Origin: Eledone cirrhosa
Taxonomy: Eukaryota
NCBI GenBank assembly: GCA_964016885.1
Contig: OZ024741.1
Location: forward strand, 193,626,001-193,690,000
DNA length: 64,000 bases
Direction: 5' to 3'
The position numbers and the translations under genes are program-made. Below the pieces are notes generated by a model that saw nothing but the letters and a program-made list of their open reading frames with translations, searched no databases and was not told the DNA's origin. Positions 4,141 to 55,684 of this stretch are shown piece by piece (positions within the stretch are counted from its first letter, which is position 1; every line of letters starts with the position of its first letter).

Positions 4141-4490
4141 AATAATACAATATAATGCTGGTATAGTTAAAAAGCATCTTAACATTTTGGACACTAGTCC
4201 TTCATTGGAAGATAGAAAAAGACGGAAAAGGGGATGTTTGAGAGAGCAAAGAAAAGGAAAACAGATGAGAGTAAAAAATAAAATGGAGAAAGGGTGGGTA
4301 GGAGAGAGAGCACGTGTTTTTGTAAATGAATCATCCTGAAAAAAAAAAATATATATATATATGTATGAGAATTTCGTATTTCTAAAGAAATATGGTATGT
4401 TTACAGGTAAACATTTAGAAAGCCGTAGCTATAAAAAACACTGGGGCTAACGCCCTCTCGTGGTGTCTAGTAGAAGCAAGGGGGACAATT

Positions 4491-4528
4491 GTTAATGCAT
4501 TTCAAACTTAACTGGTTCTCATCAGGCC
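4491..4528 (-). ncRNA. Type I hammerhead ribozyme motif (degenerate stem I)
   Basis: Minus: ggc-CTGATGA-gaac cagttaa gttt-GAAA-tgca-TT-aac. Confidence 0.55.
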
Positions 4529-4628
4529 GAACCCTCCCACACTTGCAACTGCTGGACTTGAAAACAGGCGAGAAAACCATGTATTCTCGCCTGTTTTCAA
4601 ATCCAGCAGTCCAAGTGTGGACGGGTTC

Positions 4629-4666
4629 GTCCTGATGAGAACCAGTTAAGTTCGAAATGCATTGAC
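4629..4666 (+). ncRNA. Minimal type I hammerhead ribozyme motif
   Basis: gtc-CTGATGA-gaac cagttaa gttc-GAAA-tgca-TT-gac: stem I gtc/gac, stem II 4 bp, palindromic stem III ATGCAT. Confidence 0.8.
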
Positions 4667-5379
4667 AATTGTCCCTCTACTTCTGCTGGACACCACCAGA
4701 GGGCGTTAGCCCCAGTGTTTTGCACAGATACAGCTTTCTAAATGTTAACCTGTAAACATACCGTATTTCTTTAAAAATACGAAATTCTAATACATATCTA
4801 ATACATACAGCTATGCATGAAGCTAAATCCTAATCTTATTCAATATATATATATATATAAAAATGTAAGTCCAAAGAATCATTAGATAAAATATATACAG
4901 TATTTCCTCTCCAAATCAGTATAAATTAACCACACAAAAAATCATTTAAACGAGGCTATAAGTTTAAAATATACTTCTAACTTCAATTGTGTACCTAATT
5001 CTGTGTAGTTAACTATTTGTCTTGTCAATTTCTACAGGCTAGGAGAAATACTAGGTAAGTGTCATATAGCTGTGTCATATACACCGTGAATGGTTGCCAA
5101 ACGCATATATGTATTTATGACTTTGTCTAATTTATATATATATACCCTTTGAATTTAATATATATATATAGTACATGTATATTTGTTTGCTATTTCTAGT
5201 AGCTTGTGACAATGTCTTATGAGTATGTGTATAAGTTTTCTTTGCAGCTACATGGAAAAAGTTTGATTCCACAGTGTGACACCATGGACTTTTACTTATA
5301 CTAGATATCAGGTCGACTATCATGTGAATGAAATTTGGTAGACAGAAACTGTGTGAAACTGTCCAACTGAATGTTCCTT

Positions 5380-5845
5380 TCAAAGTCAGATGTCACCAGC
5401 TTATGTTCTGAATGAGTCGAAGTAGGCAATTGTAGGTGCCATCAAGGCGCTTTTGTTGTTTGGATGAAGCGTCCATGTTTCACTTCCATATAGCAAGATT
5501 GGTTGAATTGTTACTTGGAAGAGTCTAATTTTAATGTGGCTGGAAAGATTTGAGTGCCAAACTCGATTCATTTTGTTGCAAGCTGACCACGTAAAAGGAG
5601 AGAAAGATTTGCTGACCACTGCCATTGTGCCACTTATGAGGCTGTGTCCCCATTAATGCTTTGGAAACCACAAGCAGTCACTAATATCAGGGGGCACAAG
5701 CTCTCCTATCCCGATGTCATCTCCAGAGATTCTGGTATTGAAATCCAGGACTTGACAACGGCAATGAATGACAGATGAATGTGGAGATCAATTGTTGAGT
5801 CGATTTTGGCTGAGGCCGCCTGATGATGATGATGATGATGATGAT
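5380..5845. mobile_element. RTE LINE 3' fragment (second family) with an inverted 5' part
   Basis: 5380-5590 minus encodes WSACNKMNRVWHSNL..PILLYGSETWTL; 5590-5845 plus encodes RFADHC..DLTTAMNDR..AEAA* followed by (TGA)n. Confidence 0.7.
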
Positions 5846-6084
5846 GAATGTTCCTGTTCTTGGGTTCTAGATTTAATCTATCACATGGTTTAACAGAACT
5901 GTGAGCATTTTTGGAGCACTTTATCAGAGTCCACTTAGAATAAGTTGATGATAAGTTTTTCAATTCTTACCACCTATTTTGCAGACATAAAAAAGGGTAA
6001 TGGACCATTAAAACAATCAATGATTCTCTGTATACATACTATAAGAGTGAAAAATAAGACAATAAACTTTCTCTATACACTCAC

Positions 6085-6201
6085 CTCATCTTCATCAAAG
6101 TCCAGAACAACATCTTCTTCCACAAGACGTTTTGTAGGTAGATCATCACGAGGAAACATATATTCCCAACAACTGCCATCAGCCAGATTGTACTTCATGT
6201 T
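6085..6201 (-). CDS. DRC7: DRC7 coding exon 7
   Basis: cag|NMKYNLADGSCWEYMFPRDDLPTKRLVEEDVVLDFDEDE|gtgagt; 117 nt, phase 0; resembles the DRC7 FDLGDPVRWEYML segment as recalled. Confidence 0.85.
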
Positions 6202-6288
6202 CTGCAAGAATTTTGCATTTCATATTTTATATAAATATTTAATATATGTCACTTGGTGTGTATAGTATATGTGTGGGTATAATATATA

Positions 6289-6486
6289 TGAGGGTGGGCT
6301 GAAAAGTTCATAGGTTGACTATGAAAGAGTGATGCTAGAACTGTGAAATCTTGCATGCATTAATTTCAACTCTTCTTATTAATAACTGCATTGTTTCTTT
6401 CCAAGAACTATATTGAAAAATAAACCTCATTTGGTCATTCCATAAGAGTATCTTGGTCAGCCTATGAACTTTTCAGCCGACCCTCA
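6289..6486. mobile_element. Tc1/mariner-type MITE
   Basis: About 30 bp TIRs tgagggtgggctgaaaagttcataggttgac / gtcagcctatgaacttttcagccgaccctca, flanked by TA. Confidence 0.85.
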
Positions 6487-6502
6487 TATATATGTGTGTG
6501 AC

Positions 6503-9500
6503 ATCATCATAATCATCATCATCATCATTTAACATCTATCTTCCATGCTATCATGGGTTAGATAGGTTTGTCCCACTTGAGGCAAGTTGGGTCGGGTGAC
6601 TGTGTCTCTCTCGTATAGGACTGTTTCTGGCTGGTTTTCTACAACTAGATGCCCTTCCTAACACCAACCACATTTACAGTGTGTGCTGGGTGCTTTTTGC
6701 CATGTCTCCTACACAACCACTTTACTGGGTGCTTTTTGTTGTGTCACCTACATGACCACTTTATAGTGTGGGCTGGATGTTTTGTAGTACAAACATAACT
6801 TTACAGAGTAAGTGTGGTGTGGGTCGATGTGGGGGGAGGTGTATGGGTGTGGCGTGGGTCAAGGTGGGTGAGGTGTAGGGGTGTGGGGTGTGGGGTGCCT
6901 ACTGAGTATAAGTTTAAGTTTGTGCGCAAGGGAAGGCGGGATTTCTGTATTATTGTATAGTGCCAAAGATCTCAAACCTGTGTCATTGTCTTAGAGAGGT
7001 TCAAGTGTGCAAGGTCAGCTTTCATCACCTTGTCCCAAGTCTTTCTGGGTCTACCTACTCCATAGCTTCCATCAATTTTGATAGCTCTGCTGTCGTCCTT
7101 TATACACATCAGATGACCATACCAATGCACTCCCCTCTCTAGTAAACTGCATGTGATCCCTCTTACGCCTAATTTCTCACTTAATTTGTTTATACTTTGC
7201 TGTTTTTGTATATTACTATAACATATCCCTGGGATCATGCAAGCTTCGTTTCTTTCAAATATGTGCAGATCCTCTGCACACAATGCCCATGTCTCACTAC
7301 CCTGTAACATTGCTGTTCAAATACAAGCATCATACAATCTGCCTTTCGTTTTTAGAGAGAAACTTTTTGTGGCCAACAGTGTTATTAGCTCTCTGAACCT
7401 TTTCCATCCCATTCTTACTCTGGCTAGTGTACTTTCAGAACACCCTCCTCCACTTCTGATTTTGTCAGGTAATGGAAAGTGTCTACTATTTCTATAGAGC
7501 CATCTGGGAAGTTGCTACTTACTGCACCTGAGCATCGGCCACATATAAAACCTATATTCTTTGATAGCTTGCCTGTGATACCACTACATCTTTTATGTAC
7601 CCATAGCTTGCAGTTGGGACATGGAATGGAATTTCTGCCTACTCCTTTCCTGCACACTGAGCATTGCCATTTCCCAAGGGGAACCTATGCCCTATTTTCC
7701 TTTCTACATACTAAAACTTTAGTCTTAGACAAGTTAACTTTTGATTCTAGGCCATGCTTCCGGGTTTGGAATTTCTTCTCTATAGATCAGCTATGAGAGT
7801 TTGATCATCTCCATATAGAAGTTCCCATGGGCAGCCAGTCTTAAACTCCTCGGTTATAGTCTGTAAGGCAATAATAAACAGGAGAGGGCTAATCACAGAG
7901 CTTTGGTAAACACCTACTTTTACACTAAATTCTTCCCTATATTCATGGTTAATTTTACCTTTGCTGACTATTTCTCAATACATGGCTTGTATAGCTTTCA
8001 CAAGCCACTCATCTACTCCTAGTTTTCCAAGAGCCCACCAGATAATGGAACGGGGGTCTCTGTCAAAGGCTTTCTCCAAGTCAACAAAAGCTAAGTAGAG
8101 GGGTTTACTGTTAGCTAGATACTTCTCCTGTAGTTGCCATATAAGGAAGAGAGCATATGTGGTACTTTTACTTGGTACAAACCCAAACTGCATTTCATCT
8201 AGATCAGTTCGGTCCCTAATCAGCTGTGACCTTCATGACCTGGTCAACTAACTTAAAGCCACTATAGTTTTCTCTATCTAGAGCATCTCCTTTGCCCTTG
8301 TAGCAGTTAACGATGATGCTGCTATGCCAGTCATTTGGTATGACGCCATTCTGTATTACTTGGTTTATTATCCGCATGACCATGGTTTGCCCTACCATTC
8401 CAGATGCTTTCAACATCTCAGCAACTAGCCCCAAAGGCCCAGCTGCCTTGCCTGTCTTCATATCTTTGATTGCCTTACTTACTATACTATCACTAACTTG
8501 CACAGCTTGTCCTTCTGTTGGATTAACTTAGGGCAAACTATCTTTATCCCATTCATTCTCCTCATTTAGTAGTCTCTCGTAGTGGCACTTCCAAGCTACC
8601 TTCTTATCACTACCAGTGAGGGCAAGCACACCATCATCATTATGGACACACATTACCTCGCAATACTGAACACCTCATGTCTTTGGTCCTCACGTTGTAG
8701 AACATGTTTGAACTTTCTATCCTCTGCTTCCCATCTTGCAAAGTACACTTGTCGCCTAGCTTCTCTCCTAGCTACCTGATAGTGTTCTCTACTTCCCCCA
8801 TCCCGCCATTCTTTCCATGCATGCCTTTTGGCGTTAATTGTCTCCTCCACCTAACTGTTCCACCACCAAGTTACTCTCCACCTCCTTAAAGGTCTGCTTT
8901 AGCCACAGATATCATCTGTCGCCTTCAACAGGTTAACTTTCAGGAATTCCCACTGCTCCTCTATATTATACATCTCTAATTACTGTCAAAAGCATCAAGT
9001 AATATGCTTTTAAATTTTTTACTGGCTGTGGGGTCCTTCAACTTCCGCATTCTTCTCCTTAAGGTTGTCCTCTGTCGTTGAGTTCATCTAGCACTGACTA
9101 TTAGGTTTACAACAGACACTCTGTCTTGTCTTCTAGTATGGATAAAATCTATCTGGCTGGTGTGCTCCCCTGATCTATAGATGATTAAGTGATTGTCTCA
9201 TTTTTTAAAGTTTGTGTTACAGATAGTTAGGTTATTTGCATCACAGAATTCCAGGATCCTGAAGCCTTCCCCATTTCTAGTACCAAACCCATAACCTCCA
9301 TGGATCCCATCATAGCCATCATAATGTTGTCCAACAAGCCCATTAAGGTCGCCAGCAATAATTATGTAGTCAATGTCGGTTATTTGGGAAGTAGTGAACA
9401 TTAGCGACTCATAGATCCTGTCTTTTAAAACATCAAGTAGGCCAGATTGGGGTGCATAAGCGGATATAATTGACACAGTTGTTCTCTTTAGAACTAGTCT

Positions 9501-10360: not shown

Positions 10361-10404
<44 letters not shown>

Positions 10405-10547
10405 CGTATAGCACGGAGCATATGTGCATAAACACACATGCACCGTGTTGTATTATGACAGTATTGTGTTAGCTCAATGTACAAGAACAGAGTCGTTATA
10501 TGTAAAATAAACCAAAGAACACTTACATACTCAAACAGTTTTTATTT

Positions 10548-10592
10548 GCTTACAATGTTTCATCCATACCGTTTGGTAGGATTCCTCAGAGC
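10548..10592 (-). ncRNA. Type I hammerhead ribozyme motif
   Basis: Minus: gct-CTGAGGA-atcctacc aaac ggtatggat-GAAA-cattg-TA-agc; stem II 8 bp with one bulge; GUA triplet. Confidence 0.8.
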
Positions 10593-10750
10593 TTAATAAA
10601 CACAGTGCTGAGTATAAGCTCCACAAAGCCTAGTCACACGAACAATCGGAATGCAATAGAGGGTAAATCTCCCTATCTTTACCCTCTATTGCATTCCGAT
10701 TGTTTGTGACTAGGCTTTGTGGAGCTTATACTCAACACTGTGTTTATTAA

Positions 10751-10795
10751 GCTCTGAGGATTCCTACCAAACGGTATGGATGAAACATTGTAAGC
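10751..10795 (+). ncRNA. Type I hammerhead ribozyme motif
   Basis: gct-CTGAGGA-ttcctacc aaac ggtatggat-GAAA-cattg-TA-agc; one mismatch at the base of stem II. Confidence 0.75.
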
Positions 10796-10838
10796 AAATA
10801 AAAACTGTTTGAGTATGTAAGTGTTCTTCGGATTATTT

Positions 10839-10870
<32 letters not shown>

Positions 10871-11869: not shown

Positions 11870-14451
11870 ATAGTGGCCCATAAACCACAGACAAAATCCC
11901 ACTCAACACAGACCAAATACAACCAACTACAGCAGAAGAAACATACCCAACCACCGCAACATAGGTATCCACAAAAATATCTCCTACAGAAACCAACCCC
12001 AAAACAACATAGAACTAACCCGCAACATAAACACCATATACCTCAGAAGAAATCCACCCAGAATACATGAAATCCCAACAAAACCTTCCCACATTAACAA
12101 CTACAACAGATATCACCCGCAACACTACAAAAAATAACCCCATAACATCAACACTATTTATTCCAGAAAGAATCTCCCTAGACCACATGAACCCATAACA
12201 GAACCCTTACACAATAACAACTACAACATCACCACATTAACTCTCATAAAAAAAAAAACTACAGATCCATACAAAACAGACAAGCAGACTACAATTACAC
12301 CCAAAATAACATTCCTTTTTTAAAAAAATAGACTGAAATACCAGGACACCTGATAATTAACCTTTCAAAGATATCACTATCTAACACACAAATTAACATA
12401 TTAAGCAAGAGACTGAAATTTACACTCACACCACAAAAATCTAACTTCCCCTAAATGAAAGATGACATTATGGAATTCTGCCAAAAACGTATACTAGTAG
12501 AATACTTCTCCAATGACACCAACACTGAAGACAAATCAATAATCAGAAACAAAAGTGATTTCTGCCCACAGAAAAGAAGGAACACAGCACTGGAAACCTA
12601 CTGCAAACACACCATCAACTTTCCCTATGAAAAAATTGCAAATAAACACACAAAATCAAACCTCTGAAAACACAAATGGAAAGAATTATTTGCACTTCAA
12701 GATAACACTGAAATAACCACCAAAGAAGTCGATAAAGGGAGTACTGTGATCATTATGGACACTGACTACCATAGGGACCTGGTACTTAAAATCTTAGATG
12801 ACAACAAATACTACAAAAAAAAGAAAACTGCAAACAAGTTAAAACAATGGGGGAATCTCCTAGCATTACTACAAAAATATCGCAATAGCCTAGCCACAAA
12901 AGAATTTGAATACATAAGCCTTAAAACTCAGGCCAATTATAGCAGGCCCAGCATGTGAAACCCACAGAGTTAGTAACTTCCTGGGCATCCTACTAAAGCC
13001 CTTCCTAAAACATATATAGAGCTACATACGATATGATCTTGATATGCTGAACCACCTACCCAAAACAGTAAGTGAAAACACTATTCTTGTCTCATTTGTC
13101 GTAGTAAACCTTTACACTAACATGCCGCACAACTATGGAATAACGGGAATCCAGTACTGGCTAGACACACACCAATCTGAAATGCCAACACATATCAACA
13201 AAAACTTTATTATTGATGGACTCTGATTTATGTTACAGAATAATTATTTTACTTTCAATGGTTCGTCATACCAATAAATCTCAGGTACTGCAATGAGCAC
13301 AAAAGTAGCCCGACATATGCCAACTTAGTCATGGGATTCCACGAACAACAAATTGACAACCAATCCCTTCTATTATTTGGAGACTCTTTCCTTACATATC
13401 TCAAAAATAATTGGAAGAGATACCTAGACAATTAATATGAATACACTCACTGTTTTCAAAAATATGATAAACAACATTAACAATAACATACAATTCACAA
13501 TGGAATCCAACTCCAAAGAATTAGCCTTCTTGGATATCTTTATTTTAAAAACAGATGGGAAAATAGAAACAGACATCTTTTATAAACCCACGGACTCCAA
13601 ACAGTACCTCCTCTTCACATCAAGTCACCCAAAACATACAAAACTTATCATTCCTTTTAACTTAGCCAAACGTATATGCACCATAATATCAGGCCCAACT
13701 AAACGGGAACAAAGACTAAATGAACTAAAAAACACACATACCTTAAGAGCTTTCCCACTTGACATAATTAATAACGGAATAGACAGAGCAAAACACACAA
13801 ATGTTCATCAACTTAACAATCGAAAGCACAGAACCATGAACTATATCTTACCATATGTATCCACGTTCAACCCCAGAAACACCGAAATGTTCGACCTTCT
13901 ACACAAAAACCTCCCCATTCTATTTAAATATTAAAAAAATGAAAAAAAATCCTAGAAACACACAAGATCATTAAAAATAAAAGGCAACCCAAATCACTAA
14001 AACACATTCTCAGTGGAACAAATATACACAAACCAATCTCCAGCCTTACGGTAACAAAATGCGGAAGAACAAACTGTAGCACATGCCTATACTTAATTGA
14101 AGAACAAAATTTCACATTTAAAGATGGCCAAACTTTCACAGTGAAAAACAACTTCACTTGCAACTCAGAGAACCTGATCTACATATTCACATGCGGTGGG
14201 TGTTGACATAACTACATAGGATAGACAGGTGGGTCGTTATGTAAAATAATGACCATTGATCGCCAACAAATCTGAGACGTAAACACAAGAAAAATCCTTT
14301 TATGTAGCCACATTGCAGATTGTGCAGGAATGACCCTACCCAACTTTAAAATCTTCCCCCTTTATAAGTGCTCAGATTCTTTCACTCAACAACAAAGAAT
14401 AAATAAAGAAAAATTATTTCTTAACAAATTTAAACCAAAATTAAATATGTA
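11870..14451 (+). mobile_element. Decayed Penelope-like element (RT + Cys linker + GIY-YIG), Neptune-like
   Basis: Fragments GLKF-like/TLTP, DKGSTVIIMD, SFVVVNLYTNMP, GTAMS, FLDIFI..TDIFYKPTD..QYL..SSHP, KCGRTNCSTC, NLIYIFTC..C..NYIG.TG, FKPKLN*; many frameshifts; 5' boundary approximate. Confidence 0.9.
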
Positions 14452-14981
14452 ATCACCCCCATTTGATTATTCATAAGGACCTATTGATTAAGTACATACA
14501 CATATACAGAAAGATTGATACATTTGCACACATACATGCATGTGTATATATGTATAAATATATACGCACAAATATACACTCTCTCTCTCTCACACACACA
14601 CCATAAAATAAAAAAGAAATTATTCATACACATATTTTCCAAAAATAATCTCTCTCCTAATTCCTGATTGAAAACCATCACTAATACTATACTCTGTTTT
14701 TTTAATTACCCAGCACAAAAAGACCTGTGACAAACAAACAAACTAAAATACACACACACCACTACAAAAGCAAATATATATATATATATATTGTTTTATT
14801 TGGGGAGGGTCATATTGTTATAATATTGCCAGAAATAATAATAAAACACACTCACTGTTTGGTTTGGATTGGTTTTCGCTTCTGTATATTTTATATCTCT
14901 ATAGTTAATTTAGTTGGCAATAAATGTTTATTATTGATTGATCAACAGTTAAAAATATAGATATAAATATATATGTATAGT

Positions 14982-15027
14982 CTATCAAAGTTCTTTCATC
15001 ACACACCTGTGACATCATCAGTGGTAC
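14982..15027 (-). ncRNA. Type I hammerhead-like motif
   Basis: Minus: gtacca-CTGATGA-t-gtcac aggtgt gtgat-GAAA-gaac-TT-tgatag. Confidence 0.6.
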
Positions 15028-15094
15028 TATTATGTTTCCTCCCGTTGTATTGTAATGAAGTAGACATTACAATACAACGGGGGGAAACATAATA

Positions 15095-15140
15095 GTATAA
15101 CTGATGATGTCACAGGTGTGTGATGAAAGAACTTTGATAC
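15095..15140 (+). ncRNA. Type I hammerhead-like motif
   Basis: gtataa-CTGATGA-t-gtcac aggtgt gtgat-GAAA-gaac-TT-tgatac; consensus of the two arms restores stem I gtatca/tgatac; extra U after A9. Confidence 0.6.
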
Positions 15141-15527
15141 ACTATACATATATATTTATATTTATATTTTTATATCTATATATTTATATCATATATATAT
15201 CATATATATATATATGTGTGTGTGTGTGTTATGTATTTCCGTAGAAAAGGAAAAGGAAAGAAGAGTGCTCTATGTATAGTACAGAGCTATTTGATTACAT
15301 AATAAACAACACAGTCAGGAAACTAAACAATACTATGATCTGATCAGCATACTGAACATTTCTGTTAGAATCGTCTAATTTCCTGAAACCTTTGGTAATG
15401 GAATAATTATATTGTGTTGTTTATTATGTAAATAAAAAAAAAATATATATATATATATAGCGATCCTTTGCTTAAACTTTAATCTGTTCTTATAATAAAT
15501 ATATATATATATATATATAAAATATAT

Positions 15528-16077: not shown

Positions 16078-16137
<60 letters not shown>

Positions 16138-16311
16138 GAAAATAGAGAAATTAATGTAAGCAAAATGCCAACAATAATTCAAACATATAAGTGACTATAC
16201 CATCAAGATGAAAAAATGTTTAATGTAAGTTGGGGGAAAATCAGTACAATCTTAACTCAAAATAAAATCAAGAAGAAATACTTAACCGTCAATTTGGGGA
16301 AAACTACAAAT

Positions 16312-16391
16312 GCACTATATAGTCTTAAAAGACTATTTCACGAAACTTTTCAGTAGGGTTAGTCACAGTTGGAATCGATCTTCAGTAGTGC
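16312..16391 (-). ncRNA. Type I hammerhead ribozyme motif
   Basis: Minus: gcacta-CTGAAGA-(39 nt, weak stem II cga/tcg)-GAAA-tagtct ttta agacta-TA-tagtgc; stem I 6 bp, stem III 7 bp. Confidence 0.75.
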
Positions 16392-16422
16392 TCAACACAA
16401 TATATATATATATATATATACA

Positions 16423-16475
<53 letters not shown>

Positions 16476-16552
16476 AATAAAATATAGAGTTATTAACTCA
16501 TATTGATACCCTGCAATTAACAAGTTCAAAGTATAAATACTGAGCATTATGA

Positions 16553-16868
16553 TATTAATATGTGTAGAAGTAAACACAGTAAATTCTGCGTCTAAAATTA
16601 CGAGGGTAGATTTCACCACAAATGTTATATATAATTTAAACTGAAACATACAGCATGTTACAAGATTTCTTATAAGATTTCCTATACATACCGTATCAAT
16701 AACGAGAGATGAAATCGTTATTGATACGGTATGTATAGGAAATCTTATAAGAAATCTTGTAACATGTTGTATGTTTCAATTTAAATTATATATAACATTT
16801 GTGGTGAAATCTACCCTCGTAATTTTAGACGCGGAATTCACTGTGTTTACTTCTATACATATTAATAT
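16553..16868. repeat. Fold-back palindrome, arms about 150 bp, in (TA)n context
   Basis: Inverted arms around spacer gagatgaaa near 16705-16713; produces mirrored ORFs 16392-16649(-) and 16771-17007(+). Confidence 0.95.
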
Positions 16869-17002: not shown

Positions 17003-17009
<7 letters not shown>

Positions 17010-17338
17010 CAGGAAAGAAGAGTGACACGGTTTGCTATACAAAAAAGGTTTTCAATCTCATTGCTGACAATTGGTTCTCTGAACTGGTAGGTCTAGAGAT
17101 CGCTACCCACTTGCTTTCACGTCATTCGATCACCAATACAAAGTTGTAACCAGTCAATTCATTGGAGCTTGTGAGAATGATGAATTGACTGGTTACAACT
17201 TTGTATTGGTGATCGAATGACGTGAAAACAAGCGGGTAGCGATCTCTAGACCTACCAGTTCAGAGAACCAATTGTCACCAATGAGATTGAAAACCTTTTT
17301 TGTATAGCAAACCGTGTCACTCTTCTTTCCTGATTTAT
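17003..17338. repeat. Fold-back palindrome, arms about 160 bp; right arm extends about 170 bp unpaired to the next (TA)n
   Basis: Inverted arms around ggagcttgtgag near 17164-17175; mirrored ORFs KSGKKSDTVCYTKK on both strands. Confidence 0.95.
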
Positions 17339-25361: not shown

Positions 25362-26244
25362 TTAGTGATTTGATGCAAGGGAAATAACTTTAATCTAAGA
25401 GTTGTCTTTCTTCAGTAAAATATGTCGCTAGCATTACTGGAGTAGAGCTAGAATACATATTATAATAGTCGTTTTCTGTTGTTGCTGTTGTTATTACTGT
25501 TGTTATTGTTGTTATTGTTGCTGTTTTTGTTGTTTAACCCCCAAATGATACTGACTGAATAAACCTTTTGTCAGAAGTGATACAGCTGTGACTATTCAGA
25601 ACACATTAGCCAGTGTGACCTTGGCTTTTAAGATTTCAGGAAGATTTCGCCGCTAATTCCAGCAAACACTATGACCACTTAGAGCAATGGTTCTCAACTG
25701 GAGTTCATATAAGAATTCTGAAGTGCCAGAAGATAAAAAATAGTAAATTGGGGCTCCCCAGTAGTATTTTAAGGGTTCATGAAAAAATTTTGCTGGGGTT
25801 CTCCTCTCTTCAGAGAGGTGCATCCTCGTGAGGTGGAGAGAATATTTTTCTAATCTCCTAAATCCGATTACAACAGCATCTTCTGATGTACGCGAGGTGC
25901 ATCTGGGAGCTGTGACTAATCTCTGAGGCTGAAGTCACAAGAGTAGTTAAAGGTCATATTAAGAACGAAAACAAATTTTGTTTTTTTAATTTTTGGCAAA
26001 GCCGACCATAAAGTCGCTCAGTATGCAAATGAGGCTGTATACATTTAAGAATACTATGTATTCTCCACAGTTCCAGTGGCTAGCAGCGAAGAGAACATAC
26101 AATCTTGATAAGGAGCAAAACATTCCGAAACAATTGTCGATTGTTTTCTCTCAGCTACCACTGGAACAAAAGGATGGCGTTGGCCATCTAACACATGGTG
26201 TTTATGGAGCTGTTTGCTTGCAAACAAACTAAATATTAATAATT

Positions 26245-26630
26245 GTTTTTAGTTTTGGCACAAGGCCAGCAATTATTCCAGTGCATTACTGGTACTTTAT
26301 TTTTTCGACCCTGTAAGGATGAAAGGCAAAGTTAACCTCGGCTGGATTTGAACTCAGAATGGAAAGACTCTATGTGTCAAAGCATGGCATCCGACCCTCT
26401 ACCGATACTGCCAATCCACCATTAATAATATTATCATATGGTGGATTGACAGTATCGGTAGAGGGTCGGACGCCATGCTTTGGTGCATAGAGTTACGGCC
26501 CTTGCCATTCTGAGTTCAAATCCCCCCCGAGGTTAACTTTGCCTTTCATCCTTACGGGTTTGATAAAATAAAGTACCAGTAATGCACTGGGTATTTGCTG
26601 GCCTTGTGCCAAAAGTAGAAACAATTATTA
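26245..26630. mobile_element. Two family A SINEs head-to-head (26245-26420 minus, 26440-26630 plus)
   Basis: Both have A-box-like ggcagtatcggtagag, B-box-like gagttcaaatcc, core and tail. Confidence 0.88.
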
Positions 26631-26655
26631 TCATATTATTATTATTCACTCACGA

Positions 26656-27520: not shown

Positions 27521-27553
27521 GAAAAAAATGATATTATACTCCAGAAGACATGA

Positions 27554-27652
27554 CAGGTTATTGACATAACCAAGAAAACATACCTTAACGGTTCAAGTTT
27601 TTCCAGGAAAAACTTGAACCGTTAAGGTATTTTTTTCTTGGTTATGTCAATA
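27554..27652. repeat. Palindrome, arms about 49 bp
   Basis: tattgacataaccaagaaaa..ttttcc a ggaaaa..ttttcttggttatgtcaata. Confidence 0.92.
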
Positions 27653-27670
27653 TTTATAAAACAAACTTTG

Positions 27671-27732
27671 TATTTAATCTGATGAAAGCGTAACCAAAGT
27701 TTTGGTACCCTTGAAATATATATAATAGAATA
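27671..27732 (+). ncRNA. Type I hammerhead ribozyme motif
   Basis: tatttaat-CTGATGA-aagcgtaaccaaa gt tttggtaccctt-GAAA-tatata-TA-atagaata; long stem II, palindromic stem III, stem I 7 of 8 paired. Confidence 0.7.
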
Positions 27733-27852
27733 AATATGGTTTTATAAATATAGTTTCCATTTATTTAATATCATTGTATATATATATATATGTATATATA
27801 TGTATATATATACGTATATATGTATATATATATGTATATATATGTATATATA

Positions 27853-28454: not shown

Positions 28455-28494
<40 letters not shown>

Positions 28495-28496
<2 letters not shown>

Positions 28497-28712
28497 CCGA
28501 GAAACGGGACTGTCCATCATCAGTAGTCTGCTGCTGATTATCATTGCATTACTACCATGTTGTTTGTTTACTTTCCCCTTCCAATTCGATCTGTCCCGAT
28601 AACTTATTTTAGTTATCGCTCGCACTGATTTTTAGGTATCTGGTCTTTAATGCAAAGAAATACCAATGATAACAGTAGACTACTGATGATGGACAGTCCC
28701 GTTTCTTGGTCT
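28495..28712. repeat. Inverted repeat (arms about 50 bp, spacer about 110 bp) between microsatellites
   Basis: gaccgagaaacgggactgtccatcatcagtagtct versus agactactgatgatggacagtcccgtttcttggtc. Confidence 0.85.
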
Positions 28713-28722
28713 ATTTTCATTA

Positions 28723-28766
<44 letters not shown>

Positions 28767-29273
28767 ATGTATATGTATATGTGTATATATATATGTATAT
28801 GTGTATGTGTGTGTGTATGCATGTATATATGTGTGTATGGGTATGTATGTGTATGTGTGTGTATACATATATGTGTATGTGTATATATACGTGCGCATAT
28901 GTATAGAGCTTTTTGTTTTTGTGTTTGTATGTATGCATGCATATATGTGTGTATATACCCTCTTTTTTATATGTGTGTGTGTGTATTTGTGTGTACATAT
29001 TTGAATGCATATATATTTGTGTAAATGTATGTGTATGTATTTATGTGCCTGTTCGTATTTCCATGTAGACGCAAATACGCTTATGTGAGAAAGTATACGT
29101 CTACGTACTATTACGTATATGCGCGTGGTTGAGTGTGTGTATGTTTATGTTCTGAATATTTTTTATATATTTTTTCCCCTATTTCCTTTTTGCCCGTTTT
29201 TTCAGCCTCACTTTCATATTTCCTAAATTTTGTTTTCAAATCCATATTTAATAAAAACACCATGTTATTTATG

Positions 29274-29330
29274 CATTCTGACGACTGAAGACAGACATAA
29301 CATCTACCTTCAAGAAACCACTGGTAAATG
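29274..29330 (+). ncRNA. Type I hammerhead ribozyme motif
   Basis: catt-CTGACGA-ctgaag..cttcaa-GAAA-ccactgg-TA-aatg; stem I catt/aatg, GUA triplet, near-palindromic stem III. Confidence 0.75.
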
Positions 29331-29508
29331 AAATAATTATCTTATGTTGTTTATTACATAACTAATAAGCTCTGTAACCTACATAGAGCACTCTTTTTTT
29401 CTGTACCTTTCCAACGGAAATACTTCATTTATATATATATATATATATATATGATATGCATTTTCTTATTCTCTCTCTCTCTATATATATATATAACGAG
29501 AGAGAGAG

Positions 29509-29551: not shown

Positions 29552-29615
29552 TGAGAGAGAGTGAGAATAAGAAAATGCAAAGTAGTTTCAGATGTTAAAG
29601 TCCTTTATTGATAAG

Positions 29616-29688
29616 GCTGTGATACATATTTCGATCACGACTGGCCACACGATTCCACATACCCAGTGCCATGATCTCATCAGACAGC
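29616..29688 (-). ncRNA. Type I hammerhead ribozyme motif
   Basis: Minus: gctgt-CTGATGA-gatcatg..actgg..ccagt.cgtgatc-GAAA-tatgta-TC-acagc, then AATAAA; stem I 5 bp, long stem II, AUC triplet. Confidence 0.85.
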
Positions 29689-29874
29689 TTCTTAAGGTCA
29701 CGTACCCAGTGCCATGATCTCATCAGACAGCTTCTTAAGGTCACGTACCCAGTGCCATGATCTCATCAGACAGCTTCTTAAGGTCACGTACCCAGTGCCA
29801 TGATCTCATCAGACAGCTTCTTAAGGTCATGTACCCAGTGCCAAGATCTCATCAGACAGCTTCTTAAGGTTACG
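29660..29874. repeat. 43-bp tandem repeat, 5 copies
   Basis: Unit tacccagtgccatgatctcatcagacagcttcttaaggtcacg. Confidence 0.97.
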
Positions 29875-30626
29875 TTCCCAAGGCAATCCAAATTGAAACG
29901 ACAAGGGAACGGACAAAGGTGATGCTCTTGAAGCCATCGCCCATTCTTTCGTGAGCGCCAATACACCTCCACAACTTTGCGCAGGCGCAAATGTGAAGTT
30001 GACCACCTAACTACTACCCCAAAACACAACGAAACTAGCCGAGGCAGTCCCCCCCCCTCCCTCAAACCAATCAATCACTATCATCCAAGCCGGTATGGTC
30101 ACACGGTCATAGGGTTCGTGCCAGCCACTAATTTGTAGTTTACTGCTAGTCGCACGTCCACTGGTAGCTGACCGAAACTTTGTGGTAGTAGCAGAGTATA
30201 AGTTTCAGTAGGTTTCAATACTAACTGACCATCCCCCGTGAAGAGAATATAAACTTAATTCTAGGGTCTAGATATTATGGTTTCACAAAGGAAATTAAAA
30301 TTGGTAATAAGATTGAAAATTAGAAATTAAGAGTTAAAATCCCGAATGAAGTAAAAAAAAAATATAATAAATAGGAAGATGTGTAAATTGTAGTTAGAAA
30401 TTAGGAAAAGGGATCAATATTGGATATTACAGATATGTTATCCATATATTGAAGAATAGTACCGTAACGAAGAATAGAAGATAAATTTAAAGTATAGAAC
30501 GTAATAATTAAACAAACAATTAGTTAATAATTTCTTCTATCACATAAACTAAAACAAAAAATATATAGATGCAAAATATATATATGGGAAAAATATAGAT
30601 GAAAAATAATGTATATATATATATAA

Positions 30627-31000
30627 TCCTTATCATCTCATTTCTACAGCTGAGTAAACTGGAGCAATGTGAAATAAAGTGTCTTGCTCAAGGAAACAAC
30701 ACATCACCCGTTCAATTCTCAGACCGGGTGATGTGTTGTTTCCTTGAGCAAGACACTTTATTTCACATTGCTCCAGTTTACTCAGCTGTAGAAATGAGAT
30801 GATAAGGACTCGGGTCTCTATCATTCCACTGCAAAGTGGTCGTGGAGGTGCCACGGCAAAAAAGCACCCAGCACTCACTGTAAATGAGGTTGGTGTTAGG
30901 AAGGGCATCCAGCTGTAGAAATCAAGCCAGAATCAGTTCCCGTCCCACCCTTGCAAGCAGGGAAAAGCGGACGTAAAATGAAATGATGATGAAATGATGA
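30627..31000 (+). mobile_element. 5'-truncated SINE family B (RTE tail) with an inverted duplication at its 5' end
   Basis: 30711-31000 matches the reverse complement of 55080-55367; 30627-30710 is a perfect inverted copy of about 30725-30808. Confidence 0.88.
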
Positions 31001-33139: not shown

Positions 33140-34740
33140 TATGGCCCTTTACATTCTGATTTCAAATCCTGCCAAGGTTAGCTTTGCCTTTTGTCCTTAT
33201 GGGGTCATCATCATCATCATCATCACCGTTTTACGTCCGTTCTTCCACGCTAGCATGGGTTAGATGGGTTGTCCTGTTGTGGGCAGTGTCTGGTTGGCTG
33301 ACCATGCCTTGCTCATACAGGAACTGATTTGGCTTGATTTCTACAGCTGGATGCCCTTCCTAACACCAACCTCATTTACAGTGAGTGCTGGGGGCTTTTT
33401 CGTGGCGCCTACACGTCCACTTTACAGTGTGGGCTGGGTGCTTTTTTGCCGTAGCACCTCCACGACCACCTTGCGGTGGGGGGTGTGGGGGTCTATAAAA
33501 TAAAATACCAGTTTAGCATTGGTGCTCGATTTAATCGACTTTCCCCTACCCGCAAATTTTTGGCGTTGTGCCTAAATCAAAAACCATTAAGAGGGTCGGA
33601 CGCCATGCTTTGACGCGTAGAGTTACGGCCCTTGCCATTCTGAGTTCAAATCCCGCCGAGGTTAACTTTGCCTTTCATCCTTACGATAAATAAAGTACCA
33701 GTAATGCACTAGGGTCGATTTAATCGACTTTCCCCTGCCCCCAAATTGTTGGCCTTGTGCCGAAATCAGAAATCATTATATATATATATCATCATCATCA
33801 TCATCACCGTGTAACGTTCATTTTTCCATGTTAGCATGGGTTAGATGAGAACTTTGGTGGGAGAGGTGTGTGGGATTGGGGAGGTGGGTATTTGGGCGTT
33901 TTAGGTAAATGGAAGGGGATGCAGGTGATGGTGACGCACTGGTGCACACTAGATGTATGCTTAAGCCTGTGCTTATGCGAGGTGTATGGAAGGGGTGAGG
34001 TGGTGCATACCGTATGTATGTTTCAGCCTGTGTTCGTGGGAAGGCAGGTCTTCTGTAATACTGCATAAAGCGAGAGATCTTGGGCCTGTGTCAAAGCCTT
34101 TGAGAGGTGCAATACACATATAAAACACTTAATTTCAGGTTGTTCCAGGCAACTCACCTGAAAAATAGTACCAGCAATAAAGGGATAGCGATTATCCTTG
34201 TGATAAACTAGCACCCTACCTTAGTCGTTTAAACACCAATGAAACATGTATAAGTTTTACTTTGAGTGGGCGGAGGAGGGGTCGGGATGCCAATAAAAAC
34301 ACACACACCAGTTGAATTTCACTTCTGGATTGGCAGTATCGGTAGAGGGTCGGACGCCATGCTTTGACGCATAGAGTTACGGCCCTTGCCATTCTGAGTT
34401 CAAATCCCGCCGAGGTTAACTTTGCCTTTCATCCTTATGGGGTCGATAAAATAAAGTACCAGTAATGCACTGAGTAATTGCTGGCCTTGTGCCAAAAAGT
34501 ATAAACAATTATTAGTTGAGTAACTAGGTGGATTGACAGTATCGGCAGAGAGTCGGACACTATGCTTTGCCGCATAGAGTTACGTTCCTTACAGTCTGAG
34601 TTCAAATCCTGCCGAGGTTAACTTTGCCTTTCATCCTTACGAGGTCGATAAAATAAAGCACCGGTAACGTACTGGAGTCGAGTTAATCGACTTTCTCCTC
34701 GTCCCAAATTACAGACTCTATAGTAGAAATCATTAGTTGT
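33140..34740. mobile_element. Cluster of nested or tandem SINEs (family A at about 33590-33778, 34326-34512, 34547-34735 plus) and RTE-tail elements (33205-33480, 33789-34110 minus)
   Basis: Recurrent family A and RTE-tail motifs. Confidence 0.8.
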
Positions 34741-35444
34741 TGAGTAACTAATCAATTCATCGGCTAGTTTAGTAACCGAGTGGTTGTTCAATTGTTAATT
34801 GTCGAAGCCCTTTCGTTACACGTTCTGTAACATCCTCAATGACTATTTTTCTTACTCTGTATCCACCCCTTGTATCATTTTATTTTTGAGAAGACAAGAT
34901 GAAGTAAACTGATAAAACGAAAACGAGTTACTTCGAACAGTTAGGCTTGTATGATTTCGGCAGTAAAGTCGTTGCTAAGAACACCTTCACGGTATGTTAT
35001 TGTTATTTTGGTTTTATGTGATGGACGATCTCAGATAAGGTATGATTTTTTCACACACCTCCCCACCTTTTTTTTTTAAATCTTAATTTTTAGACTTTTT
35101 AAAATCTAATTCAGTTAATGATTTCTATCATATGTTATCCATGGATTTAAAAAATGTTATTTTTTTATTTATTTTATTCCATTTTTTTTTAAAAAAACAT
35201 CGCAGCAATATATTTTGCCTTACAAAGTTATTACTACAGAAATCTTATAACAAAAAAAAAAACCTTTTATATTAAAAAAAACTTTTTTTTTGTCATGAAA
35301 ATACTAAAATTATAAATAGCGAACCGAAATGTTTATTTCCTCCAATTAAAGTCGAGTTTATTATTTACTGCTGTACTTTTAACAATGTCTGCTATCATAT
35401 AATACACGTGGGTTGAAACTAAATATTGAAGTTACAGAAGAAAT

Positions 35445-36641
35445 ATGAATAATTTAAGGTGGAAACCGTTACACTTATTAATGAGGAGCTGTCGACTATG
35501 TTTGTCCCACGGTAAACAGCCGGTGTATTACCCAGTTCACTGTACAACAGATATTTCATGTAGAGCTTTACAAACAATGTCTGTACGGAGGCTGAGCTCT
35601 GTAAAAAACAGCTTATTGAAATATGGTTGGGTCGGTAGGAATGTAATATCGGGTTTCCATAACCAAACTTTGGTATTGGCACCAGCTAAAAATAAACCCG
35701 TGACACCACTCACAACTAAAATGACCACCCGAAAGAAAGCCGTCGACATTGTTGACTCGGATAAGCTGGAGGTTGTGGCTTATGCTATATCTGAGGATAT
35801 CAAACTGGAGGAACTAAGCAAGGCTTTCGCTGAACAGGCCCTCTATGAAATCGTAGCTTTGCCGACTGATGTTGTAGATAGTCTTCATGTGAAAGCCATT
35901 TACAAGATCGACAACAAAGAACGAGAGATATTCCTGTTCCGTGAAGGTGCTGTTGTGTTTTGGAATATGACTGTAACAGAAAGAAAGGAAGCTCTACATT
36001 TTATTGAGAAATACTCCATCACTCCTTACGCTTCGTCCCTCTATCTGACTGAAAACGAAGGTTTGAAATATGACTACAGTGCAGATTGTAAGACGTGTCT
36101 GGACAAAGATATGATTCACATCAACAAAGACGAACAGTTCGACCCACTCGTAAAGTACGCCTTCTCTAATTCTCTTTCATTGTCGGTGAAGCTGGCCATT
36201 TGGGAGGAGTCTTTAGTTCGATTTGTCTATGCTATTGAACCAGTCATTGAGGACGTTCGCCTGGGTAAGACAATTCGTGTGTCCCGGGACCAGATTTTAC
36301 GCATGACCGGGGAACTCTTCACATTGAGACACTTGATTAATTTAAGTTCTGACTTGTTGGACGTCCCCGATTTTTATTGGGACCGTGAGAATCTGGAACC
36401 TCTATATCAAAGTCTGTCCAATTACCTTAGCATAAACCGGCGGACCAAAGTAATTAACGAGAAACTTAAACACTGTTGCGAGTTGACCGAACTGTTGTCC
36501 CATCACCTCAATGACAAACACCACACACGACTGGAGTGGATGATAATCATCCTCATTCTTGTTGAGGTGATATTTGAATGTGTTCATTATATGGAAAAGT
36601 ATTACAGCCACCAAATTACATACACCAACGAGGACAAATAA
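35445..36641 (+). CDS. RMND1: RMND1 / Sif2-Rmd1 (DUF155) family protein, mitochondrial; uninterrupted CDS
   Basis: Intact 398 aa ORF; IFLFREGAVVFWN, AFSNSLSLSVKLAIWE, GELFTLRHLINLSSDLLDVPDFYWDRE, RRTKVINEKL, RLEWMIIILILVEV (TM); basic N-terminus resembling a presequence. Confidence 0.95.
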   Translation: MNNLRWKPLHLLMRSCRLCLSHGKQPVYYPVHCTTDISCRALQTMSVRRLSSVKNSLLKYGWVGRNVISGFHNQTLVLAPAKNKPVTPLTTKMTTRKKAVDIVDSDKLEVVAYAISEDIKLEELSKAFAEQALYEIVALPTDVVDSLHVKAIYKIDNKEREIFLFREGAVVFWNMTVTERKEALHFIEKYSITPYASSLYLTENEGLKYDYSADCKTCLDKDMIHINKDEQFDPLVKYAFSNSLSLSVKLAIWEESLVRFVYAIEPVIEDVRLGKTIRVSRDQILRMTGELFTLRHLINLSSDLLDVPDFYWDRENLEPLYQSLSNYLSINRRTKVINEKLKHCCELTELLSHHLNDKHHTRLEWMIIILILVEVIFECVHYMEKYYSHQITYTNEDK

Positions 36642-49580: not shown

Positions 49581-49633
49581 AAATAATAATACAAATATCG
49601 AAATAATAATAGTAATAAGTGACTGTTTCTTGC

Positions 49634-51791: not shown

Positions 51792-51822
<31 letters not shown>

Positions 51823-53247: not shown

Positions 53248-53695
53248 ATCATCATCAGGTCGAGCTTGCTTGGCTTTCTACGACACGCTTCCCCCATCCA
53301 TCTCTGTCTCTCATAGCGTTTGCCAGTTCTTCCGCAGTGCATCCAGTATCGTCCTCAAGTTGCTTGACGTATGTCTTCTTAGGACGACCAGCGTTTCTTG
53401 CTCCATGAGATGAACTCCATAACAACACATCACCTGCTATTTCTTCCTTGCTGCGCCAACAGTGGCCAGCAAATCTGAGTCTCTGTCCACGTATTGACCT
53501 GCTGATAGGTGGTATATTGCCATAGAGATCCTTATTTGTTGGGTGTTTCCTCCAAGACACGTTTAAAGCAGCGCGGAGCATACGTGTGTATGCCCCGTCT
53601 AGCTTTTTCTCCAGTTTCGACGTTAGCGTCCAAGTGATAGAGCCATAAACAAGCACAGACTCCACAGCAGCTCTGAAGAAATTCCTTTTCAACTG
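53248..53695 (-). mobile_element. RTE 3' fragment with (TGA)n tail, inserted in (TA)n
   Basis: Open 145 aa piece: AVESVLVYGSITWTL..YTRMLR..LRFAGHCWR..GRPKKTY. Confidence 0.88.
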
Positions 53696-53878
53696 CTCTA
53701 ATACAGAGTATTGCTTTCACTTGTATGGAGTAGTGACCGCAAGTATATATCCAGCTATTGAAAGCTAAATATATATATATATATTTACTAATAGATTTGA
53801 ATTGATATACAATATCGTCTCACTGTACCATAACCACTTAATGTAGATTTGGTGAAAAAATACCAAAAACAGAGATCA

Positions 53879-53949
<71 letters not shown>

Positions 53950-53958
<9 letters not shown>

Positions 53959-54037
53959 TAAAATAACAGATTAAAGTTTAAGCAAAGAATCGCTGCTTTT
54001 CTTTGCTTAAACTTTAATCAGTTATTTTAATAAATAT
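53950..54037. repeat. Palindrome, arms about 39 bp, next to a long (TA)n
   Basis: atttattaaaataacagattaaagtttaagcaaagaa / ttctttgcttaaactttaatcagttattttaataaat; a single arm recurs at 15459-15500. Confidence 0.9.
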
Positions 54038-54246
54038 TTGCTCTACGGTTCTTATATATTTTATATATATTTATCCTTATCGAGCACTCTTTGGATTTTA
54101 GTCTTCAAATTTATTATTATTACTATATATATATATATAATCCTTGGCTCTCCTTCCCACATTGTCTGATGTACTGTCTTATGTCTATATGTATGAATGC
54201 CTGTATTTTTATATATAAATATCCTATTTTTCCACCTCTCTTTATG

Positions 54247-54303
<57 letters not shown>

Positions 54304-54401
54304 TATAAGCAAAAAGTAGATTATTTGGCAATTATATATTATCATATATAATTCTCCTTATATAAATTGAGTTACACATTGTTATCCTTAATATATATAT
54401 A

Positions 54402-54800
54402 TCATCACCGTTTTACGTCCATTCGTCCAGGCTAGCATGGGTTAGACAGATTGTCCTGTTGTGGACAATGCCAGGTCAGGTGACCTTGTCTTGCTCATAC
54501 AGAACTGATTTTGGCTTGATATCTACAGCTGGATGCCCTTCCTAACACCAACCTCATTTACAGTGATTACTGGGTGCTTTTTTACCATGACACCTCCACG
54601 ACCACTTTGCAGTGGGAGGGGGTGGGGGCATATTGTATATATGCTTCAGCTTTGGCTTGTTCTCATGGGAAGTCGGGTCTTCTGTATTACTGCATAACAC
54701 CAGAGGTGTCGGTCTTGTGTCATCACCTTTGAGAGGTGCAATTGGGCAAGGTCAGCTTTTATCACCTCATCCCAGGTCTTCTTGGGTCTCCCCATGCTAA
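54402..54800 (-). mobile_element. RTE 3' fragment
   Basis: RTE 3'UTR motifs and RPRKTWD-region similarity. Confidence 0.75.
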
Positions 54801-55077
54801 GGCTTCCATATATATATATAGAGAGAGAATAATTTGAAACTCAACGCAAAGGAAAACTGCCGAAACTGTAAAATATCATCAATGACGACGTTGGGTAAAG
54901 TGTGTTGGTCCAGAGAAGTGGTAGAGAGGAGTAGAGGGAGAAGATGGAAGAATGTAAATGAATGAGACAAAAGAAACGCACAACATTTGATGATGCAATA
55001 AGATGTTGTGTGTTTATTCCATAAGTTTCTAATGCACTCCCGCTTCAACTCGATTTTCTAGACAACACCTTGTTTAT

Positions 55078-55413
55078 ATCATCATCATCATCATCTCATT
55101 TTTACGTCTGCTTTTTCCCTGCTTGTTAAAGTGGGACATGAACTGATTCTGGCTTGATTTCTACAGCTGGATGCCCTTCCTCACACCAACTTCATTTACA
55201 GTGAGTGCTGGGTGCTTTTTTGCCATGGCGCCTCCACGACCACTTTGCAGTGGAATGATATGGACCCCAGTCCTATCATCTCATTTCTACAGCTGAGTAA
55301 ACTGGAGCAATGTGAAATAAAGTGTCTTGCTCAAGGAAACAACACATCACCCGGTCTGAGAATTGAACTCACAACCTTTCGATTGCAAGGCCAATGCTCT
55401 AACCACTAAGCCA
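55078..55413 (-). mobile_element. Full-length SINE family B: tRNA head, central domain, RTE-derived tail
   Basis: Minus: tggcttagtggttagagc (A box)..gagttcaattctc (B box)..ccttgagcaagacactt..gaggaagggcatccagctgtagaaa..(GAT)n. Confidence 0.88.
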
Positions 55414-55583
55414 TATATATACATAATATTTATGAGAGTAAAGAATAGGTTTTACTTGTTTACTAGGTGTATTTTCAGTCAATGCTATGATAGGATCAAG
55501 CAGAGCCAGTATATAATTATAATAATATTGTACTTACAAACTAAAATTGTAAGTACAATTTTAGTTTGTAACATTCTTATAAT

Positions 55584-55684
55584 AATAACAATTGTTTCTT
55601 CTTATAAGAATGTACTTCCAACAACAAGTTATTTTAATCAAGAATTTGCTATTAGTTAGCACAAACCATAGGAATCGTCAGAGT
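55584..55684 (-). ncRNA. Type I hammerhead-like motif in the 3' region of the minus-strand PLE
   Basis: Minus: act-CTGACGA-ttcctat..(long loop)..ataagaa-GAAA-caattg-TT-att; palindromic stem III ACAATTGT; about 245 nt after the PLE stop codon. Confidence 0.6.

Follow-up and report, generated by a model that had tools for sequence, protein, structure and literature searches.

Hammerhead-bearing repeat ends in (TA)n tracts of the octopod Eledone cirrhosa, probably inserted by Penelope-type proteins

What brings hammerhead ribozyme motifs with unrelated flanks to eight places in a single stretch of octopod DNA? The stretch, called the window below, comprises 64,000 nucleotides of contig OZ024741.1 from the Eledone cirrhosa assembly GCA_964016885.1 (positions 193,626,001 to 193,690,000, forward strand); coordinates are those of the window. 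An original prediction, made from the letters alone, took the eight loci for remnants of the pseudo-long terminal repeats (pLTRs) of Penelope-like elements (PLEs) or for non-autonomous ribozyme elements. Both kinds indeed occur. In all likelihood the loci are 3'-end fragments of PLEs (families F2, F3, F5, F6 and F8) and of tandem units without an open reading frame (ORF; families F1 and F4), and probably all of them were put into (TA)n by the reverse transcriptase (RT)/endonuclease (EN) proteins of Penelope elements.

The words CUGANGA, GAAA and UH are present in type I order at all eight coordinates, and the majority sequence of each of the eight families (F1 to F8) contains a complete type I hammerhead, so this part of the prediction stands. 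A first structural descriptor found five (strict) or six (relaxed) motifs in the window, where 200 local dinucleotide shuffles gave 0.03 and 0.07 on average. A refined descriptor found six motifs at five of the eight loci and none in 60 shuffles; at the base of stem II it tolerates a bulge or mismatch. It missed the loci at 14951, 27671 and 55584 because the window copies are damaged, the family majority sequences being complete: stem I is weak at 14951 and carries one substitution at 27671, and at 55584 a local rearrangement removed the 3' strand of stem I. Thus the proposed comparison with shuffled sequence came out in favour of the motifs, whereas the proposed Rfam search did not, as no hammerhead family was among 131 window matches at E<=10, nor at E<=1 in a locus with eight descriptor matches. 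Chance matches in AT-rich DNA, for which the Rfam result and the merely mild enrichment of the bare word CUGANGA in the window (43 versus 29-30 +/- 5 expected) could be quoted, are refuted by the descriptor counts here and in samples from the whole genome (49 versus 0-1 after shuffling) and can safely be dismissed.

Stem III is tiny in seven families, as predicted for most of them, but it is a perfect palindrome only in four (F1, F5, F8 and, apart from one CpG-type change, F7), and F4 has a stem III of 7 bp. Several units are longer than had been noted (10401-10846, 14788-15151, about 28723-29429 and 29564-30430). In addition, it had escaped notice that the loci at 4361, 10498 and 14951 are long inverted repeats with one outward-pointing hammerhead on each arm, and that a short inverted arm is present at 27671. 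The eight loci are as follows.

4352-4859, unstranded: F1, two copies of an ORF-less, retrozyme-like unit of 339 nt placed head to head, with a plus-strand core at 4632 (predicted cut after 4663) and a minus-strand core at 4525, whose stem I is damaged; tail of about 42 nt on the right arm; junction on a natural inverted repeat (4564-4594).
10401-10846, unstranded: F2, two pLTRs of a Hydra-type PLE arranged head to head; the plus-strand core at 10754 has its predicted cut after 10792, the minus-strand core at 10589 has it at 10551; tail of 102 nt on the left arm only (10401-10497).
14788-15151, unstranded: F3, two pLTRs of a Neptune/Nematis-type PLE, likewise head to head, with a plus-strand core at 15101 and a minus-strand core at 15021; left-arm tail 14788-14967; junction overlap of 4 nt.
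16128-16402, minus strand: F4, remnant of an ORF-less tandem unit of 625-634 nt that has lost its 5' part; core at 16385; with its stem III of 7 bp this hammerhead should fold as a monomer; stem II has U-U at its base; predicted cut 16318.
27546-27786, plus strand: F5, end of the pLTR of a Hydra-type PLE, with a short inverted arm on its left (27546-27604); the core at 27679 has a predicted cut after 27724, and stem I contains one substitution.
28723-29429, plus strand: F6, end of the pLTR of a Hydra-type PLE together with the 3' untranslated region (UTR) and a tail of 70 nt (29360-29429); the hammerhead, with its core at 29278 and its predicted cut after 29326, has a C-A mismatch at the base of stem II; the UTR is microsatellite-like, so that 28723 is an approximate 5' boundary.
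29564-30430, minus strand: F7, non-coding 3' end of about 870 nt; core at 29683, predicted cut 29621; a local tandem duplication of 43 bp (29656-29880) repeats the first half of the ribozyme.
55426-55765, minus strand: F8, pLTR end of a Hydra-like PLE, old and rearranged; the hammerhead with its core at 55681 has a long insert in stem II and is without the 3' strand of stem I.

Conservation was studied in homologues that were gathered by sequence similarity and not by structure, with CpG sites excluded. Among representatives of diverged clusters the eleven core positions differ in 26 of 465 cells, elsewhere in 867 of 4,749; among close copies the figures are 57 of 3,056 and 1,502 of 31,341. 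In the stems 406 cells are unchanged and 12 gapped; 36 of the 38 cells changed on both sides still pair, as do 65 of the 108 changed on one side. These cells are not independent events, and some of the "clusters" are single decayed copies. As long as wrong-strand, self-complementary F5 hits were included and F8 was absent, the diverged copies showed no difference (149/792 versus 1,490/7,811), and the test was redone without these hits. The predicted conservation of the core and covariation of the stems among genomic copies are therefore seen in the redone test. We suppose that selection would have acted on the hammerhead in master elements, in which it would cleave tandem precursor RNA to single units, mostly by way of two paired tiny stem IIIs or with the help of a protein, and that most genomic copies would now be decaying passengers. 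This is similar to what has been proposed for pLTR hammerheads, which would cleave tandem precursors weakly, as dimers or with help (PMC4209133, PMC6765202). For a Penelope element in vitro, cleavage occurred solely with the element's own protein, and the hammerhead was not needed for insertion (PMC11167929). An intact F4 copy, folded singly, is able to form stems I and III, and a pair of F6 sequences forms an intermolecular stem III. In head-to-head pairs the motifs lie on opposite strands; therefore one transcript would contain one motif and would fold into a long hairpin, and judged from the sequence such copies are unlikely to be active.

Every window locus is one copy of a dispersed family, the best copies being 79-98% identical. 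A first search gave 2,634 candidates for F1, 988 for F2, 2,208 for F3, 1,269 for F4, 1,798 for F5, 3,245 for F6, 2,034 for F7 and 123 for F8; these totals are not copy numbers, the best 40 having been scored per search. The 3' ends of the copies are fixed and run into (TA)n or (CA)n, and the 5' ends are ragged. In F3 the end of an ORF for RT and GIY-YIG endonuclease is found about 250 nt upstream of the ribozyme, on the same strand and collinear, at five of 28 other loci, and a sixth locus is internally inverted. This ORF, read in L069, L074 and L086, covers RT thumb and EN and has a CX4CxxC linker as well as the CCHH endonuclease motif (Neptune and Nematis were not separated). A collinear Hydra-type ORF end is present upstream in three of 24 F5 loci, one of them with RT and EN over 1.4 kb, and in two of 24 F8 loci, where the extreme C-terminus alone is visible. 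For F6 such an end is linked at one direct and one inverted locus, and for F2 in one of 20 long copies, two further copies sharing its UTR to about 50 nt from the stop. UTRs of 1.1-2.1 kb separate ORF end and ribozyme end in F2, F5, F6 and F8. A CxCx5C linker together with the absence of CCHH, which defines the Hydra clade (PMC8557442), was read directly for F2, F5 and F6; the linked copies stop short of the N-terminus, where this clade has its RWK and DKT motifs. Because they are collinear with upstream Penelope-like RT/GIY-YIG genes, F2, F3, F5, F6 and F8 are regarded as 5'-truncated pLTR ends. In Pfam and NCBIfam these PLE proteins give weak RT matches alone, and none were found among phage records; a related 615-aa ORF is placed by Atlas with RT/GIY-YIG clusters.

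The elements of the Hydra clade described in PMC8557442 share with ours the linker, the lack of CCHH, a canonical hammerhead, (TA)n targets, an inverted 5'-truncated copy and a one-sided tail. They differ in the 3' UTRs, given the lengths of 1.1-2.1 kb found here, and in the tails, which have 30-40 nt there and 70-102 nt here. The available portions of that paper name no cephalopod Hydra family.

Two further observations concern relatives of F3. Locus L255 (6738-9745) looks like a textbook PLE insertion, consisting of an inverted pLTR, a remnant of a 615-aa RT-EN protein and a pLTR with tail, and the hammerhead in it is related to that of F3 and shows compensatory changes in its stems. At L062 (about 1530-1710) a 59-nt unit is repeated in tandem, with a whole F3 hammerhead in each.

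For seven families a body end and an optional extension (tail, 42-190 nt) were defined; 190 loci were scored and four of them dropped. The near-perfect inverted arms between TA repeats could suggest that the hairpin loci are miniature inverted-repeat transposable elements (MITEs) or fold-back DNA transposons with chance hammerhead-like words. However, single arms predominate, 126 of the 186 scored loci being without an inverted partner within reach, the lengths of arms and spacers vary from 0 to more than 1 kb, and the arms end at different fixed points. Moreover, RT and GIY-YIG are encoded upstream, and the hammerheads have a conserved core and covarying stems. The ORF links and the one-sided tail contradict such an origin, which we consider highly improbable.

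The situation is different for F1 and F4, which are called retrozyme-like because they form ORF-less tandem units. Units of F1 follow one another head to tail every 339 nt (dimer L333), those of F4 every 625 or 634 nt, with a longest stop-free frame of 110 aa (dimers L261 and L342). Each tandem unit has a complete type I hammerhead, and dimers alone were seen, no long arrays. Retrozyme units have 150-450 nt, a range which includes F1 but not F4. The F1 unit is like the 350-390-nt units of mussel among the non-LTR retrozymes of metazoans (PMC7229834; 10.64898/2026.07.22.740005), and a U-U at the base of stem II is known from axolotl. Unlike these, F4 has a stable stem III besides its length of 625-634 nt. 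F1 copies, furthermore, bear a PLE footprint (inversion and tail) which is not described in the available portions of the two sources. In those of the preprint on retrozyme origin (10.64898/2026.07.22.740005) neither a mollusc nor an octopus occurs, and the word "tail" is unused. An endonuclease near one F4 copy was rejected as the ORF of F4, as microsatellites and other inserts intervene.

Could then all eight families be independent circular-RNA retrozymes, replicated as small RNAs and without a PLE gene of their own? The ORF-less tandems of F1 and F4 would fit, as would a young 311-nt array of six copies in a random sample and the predominance of short copies in every family. The array (L306:5950-8150) lies between (TA)n and is retrozyme-like; its units are joined head to head, four in one orientation and two in the other. 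In contrast, five families have a collinear PLE endonuclease gene at 0.25-2.1 kb upstream, and their 5' ends are ragged and their 3' ends fixed. This contradicts the explanation for F2, F3, F5, F6 and F8, and we regard it as improbable for the whole set.

The insertions themselves carry a footprint. Each family has two fixed 3' ends, one with and one without the tail. In the 48 rows with an inverted partner, one arm has the tail in 41, both arms in one and neither in six. After deduplication and with F6 set aside, exactly one tail is found in 26 of 32 pairs, where at most half would be expected if the arms were independent (binomial p=3e-4); six duplicate rows and one chance hit of 15 bp had been removed before this count, and one complex insertion was counted twice. 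For F6, nine of nine partners are without tail, the F6 query itself having included it. F7 also shows tail and inversion, the PLE-type tail being present in other copies than that of the window. Junctions could be resolved in 40 of 43 pairs and have a median overlap of 3 nt, compared to 0 in 80 synthetic junctions (p=0.002). The scored pairs are top hits and biased to short spacers.

An inverted pLTR with a one-sided tail has already been described for PLEs (PMC3846280, PMC8557442). As to the mechanism, the symmetric (TA)n target would be nicked by the protein on either strand, and one cDNA would start at each of two internal RNA sites; both cDNAs would usually stop early and then join through a few matching bases or a short palindrome. 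The outcome would be an inverted pair with one tailed arm. Similar steps are known in vitro from the purified protein of Poseidon PAc of Anolis (PMC11167929), which uses AT-rich targets and cuts both strands, both being extended, and for which two internal start sites of the RT define the tail. The two sites of Poseidon PAc are adjacent and not homologous to the target, whereas here the ends lie at short TA-like words, 42-190 nt apart. Ends that belong to different PLE families are often nested in one and the same (TA)n tract, as at L053, L072, L158 and L206, so that insertions pile up at shared targets.

Several points weigh against this reading of the eight loci. Single-sequence folding of the window copies gives weak z-scores (-2.25 to +0.51) and no hammerhead for F1 and F3. 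In the stems, 43 of the cells changed on one side are broken. The analysed loci are the best-scoring copies per search and not a random draw. The link of F2 to a PLE rests on one ORF-bearing copy, and the clade names (Hydra, Neptune/Nematis) are to be taken as putative since they are based on motifs and not on an RT tree. For F7 neither a collinear ORF nor a tandem was found in 45 loci, and the shared upstream sequence stops after about 0.8 kb; likewise, no helper protein could be tied to F1 or F4. Finally, at 21 of the 40 resolved junctions the arms end within 17 nt of each other, which fits snap-back at least as well as two primers.

Snap-back of a single cDNA is a real rival for these symmetric junctions. 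Here the elements would be the same, but the pairs would arise when one cDNA folds back at a short palindrome and primes itself, as was proposed earlier for rotifer PLEs (PMC3846280). Besides the 21 near-symmetric junctions, three independent F5 insertions have one common palindromic junction, and the F1 junction in the window coincides with its natural inverted repeat. However, a fold-back copy cannot gain a tail which is absent from its template, so that the tailed arm should always be the longer one, and in more than half of the untied pairs it is the tail-less arm that is longer. In nine rows, furthermore, the inverted tail stands alone at the 5' end, and 19 of the 40 junctions are far from symmetric. 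As a general account of the pairs self-priming thus appears unlikely, though clearly less so than the alternatives treated above, and we prefer two cDNA starts.

Is the window unusual? Sixty evenly spaced stretches of 10 kb (600 kb) of the 3.0-Gb assembly were sampled, all from 26 of its 28 large contigs. The 49 strict motifs found lie in 25 of the 60 stretches, the shuffled comparison comprising eight sets. Since evenly spaced samples give this many, the window is ordinary for its genome. The density of 0.82 per 10 kb (bootstrap 0.48-1.22) corresponds to about 245,000 motifs genome-wide (145,000-365,000), or one per 12 kb, to which the predicted one per 8 kb comes close. Ten further candidates of the U3-A8 variant are in the same sample, counted without a shuffled control.

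For comparison, the genome of the axolotl is about ten times larger. Among published figures, the largest we found reach 120,000 retrozyme copies in axolotl, with about 5,000 for mussel (PMC7229834) and about 9,000 minimal motifs for Xenopus (PMC4209133). The hammerheads described there from pLTRs of endonuclease-bearing PLEs (PMC4209133) resemble those of Eledone in type I order, tiny or palindromic stem III and an extra base after A9, and likewise occur as many dissimilar families per genome, mostly as solo remnants, with opposite-strand pairs 100-700 bp apart and a U3-A8 variant. They differ in number, with about 2,000-9,000 minimal motifs per genome compared to the 245,000 estimated here. 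Further differences on our side are the frequent replacement of the pair G10.1-C11.1 (U-U in F2 and F4, C-A in F6) and the long stem II insert of F8.

A search with the RT thumb gave 21,903 candidates, and intact 777-aa frames were found in about 30 of the best 150 scored rows. The young Neptune-type family concerned (L246, L248, L249, L250, L253, L254) has an intact 777-aa ORF after a 427-aa frame, in a tandem unit of 4.85 kb with a microsatellite-like 3' UTR, and a U3-A8 hammerhead in five of six loci examined. It was rejected as the source of the F1-F8 ends, as it ends in none of them. Tentatively, and with slightly less than even confidence, we put forward a wider view: an octopod genome would contain about a quarter of a million intact-looking hammerheads, far denser than any printed figure we found and of at least three designs (minimal dimer-type, long-stem monomer-type and scrambled SGC-type). 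The Penelope footprint on ORF-less retrozymes would be direct genomic evidence that Penelope enzymes move them, the one-tail rule would record paired priming from two starts, and the young family with its intact 777-aa ORF would make the mechanism testable in one species.

The SGC-type design concerns a ninth motif, outside the original prediction, which is the more surprising object beside the eight loci.

28456-28722, plus strand: inverted pair of a roughly 550-nt ORF-less unit with a putative type SGC hammerhead (28635-28689).

In this region GAAA precedes CUGAUGA, and it could not be fitted to hammerhead types I-III. The cleavage block 28635-28646 (predicted cut after C28640), GAAA at 28657-28660 and CUGAUGA at 28683-28689 follow each other in the same order as in the non-circularly permuted type SGC hammerheads of PMC10085705, with which the motif also shares covarying stems I and III; it differs from them in that it belongs to an animal retroelement family, is predicted and has one stem II pair assigned. 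In 18 sequences picked by core words alone, 95.7% of the cells are paired (stem III 98.9%, stem I 97.2%). Double changes occur in 17 of 25 pairs, 0 of 500 shuffles reached this, and 24-51% of cells are paired when the structure is slid; the structure was derived by inspecting the same 18 sequences, which favours it. For stem II only the pair 10.1-11.1 is assigned, paired in 16 of 18 sequences with three pair types. A descriptor of this type matches the window once, at 28683, compared to two matches in 30 shuffles. The family has 2,035 candidates, and the full core is kept in 12 of 20 fetched copies. It is regarded as an ORF-less tandem unit because two copies show the end of a preceding unit about 550 nt upstream. 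A hairpin upstream of it and one more covarying helix were also noticed.

Earlier publications already describe hammerheads in pLTRs, solo remnants, pairs on opposite strands, tails, insertion into (TA)n and retrozymes. The original prediction considered the elements probably unannotated. PLEs, however, are annotated in Octopus vulgaris, and it is on ribozymes that the main text of that study is silent (PMC13282606). Our literature search found no study of octopus hammerheads; the supplements of PMC8557442 and PMC13282606 may list such families. The locus thus adds scale and material to a known system, and its main value may lie in the scale, the testable insertion rule and the neighbouring putative SGC motif. 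Octopod genomes appear to be among the richest natural stores of hammerheads, and these escape the Rfam models in current use. With thousands of insertions whose two ends are fixed and whose inversion junctions can be mapped, statistics become possible on the formation of pairs and tails, named as open in PMC8557442. ORF-less units with a Penelope footprint are relevant to the helper of animal retrozymes, which has been proposed but not proven.

Three more features of the window belong to the same world of elements.

11904-14458, plus strand: degraded ORF of a Neptune-type PLE (DKG motif, RT, CX4CxxC linker, GIY-YIG) with many stops and frameshifts.
15222-15438, unstranded: decayed inverted pair of an F6 relative, its core now CTGAACA at 15352; likewise outside the original prediction.
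59545-61344, minus strand: second ORF fragment of a Neptune-type PLE, more decayed.

F3 lies 330 nt from the first of these ORFs, but was rejected as its end, as F3 copies elsewhere join a different protein family. A decayed F3 relative with the core TTGAGGA is found at 34279-34839, and a family of RT fragments at 56066-58808. Two more near-perfect TA-flanked hairpins (16552-16868 and 17004-17338) have one arm extended like the PLE pairs and no recognizable hammerhead; the second has a decayed end resembling GAAA-CAATTG-UH and distant relatives in loci L015 and L376. The hairpins at 26232-26637, 30627-30808 and 1102-2305 are head-to-head copies of other very common repeats, the first of which has 99 matches in the sampled 600 kb. 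A search with the F6 stretch listed no RNA run that contains it, and sequence of F6 and F7 is present in contigs of four sequencing runs of unknown kind, one labelled as another organism; neither result has a bearing on expression. Apart from the repeats, the window contains an intron-less ORF of 403 aa at 35430-36641 that is RMND1-like (Pfam DUF155, also by Atlas) and shows the host to be an octopod, with seven matches at E<=1e-100 and an identity of 82-83% to Octopus proteins and 78% to Argonauta.

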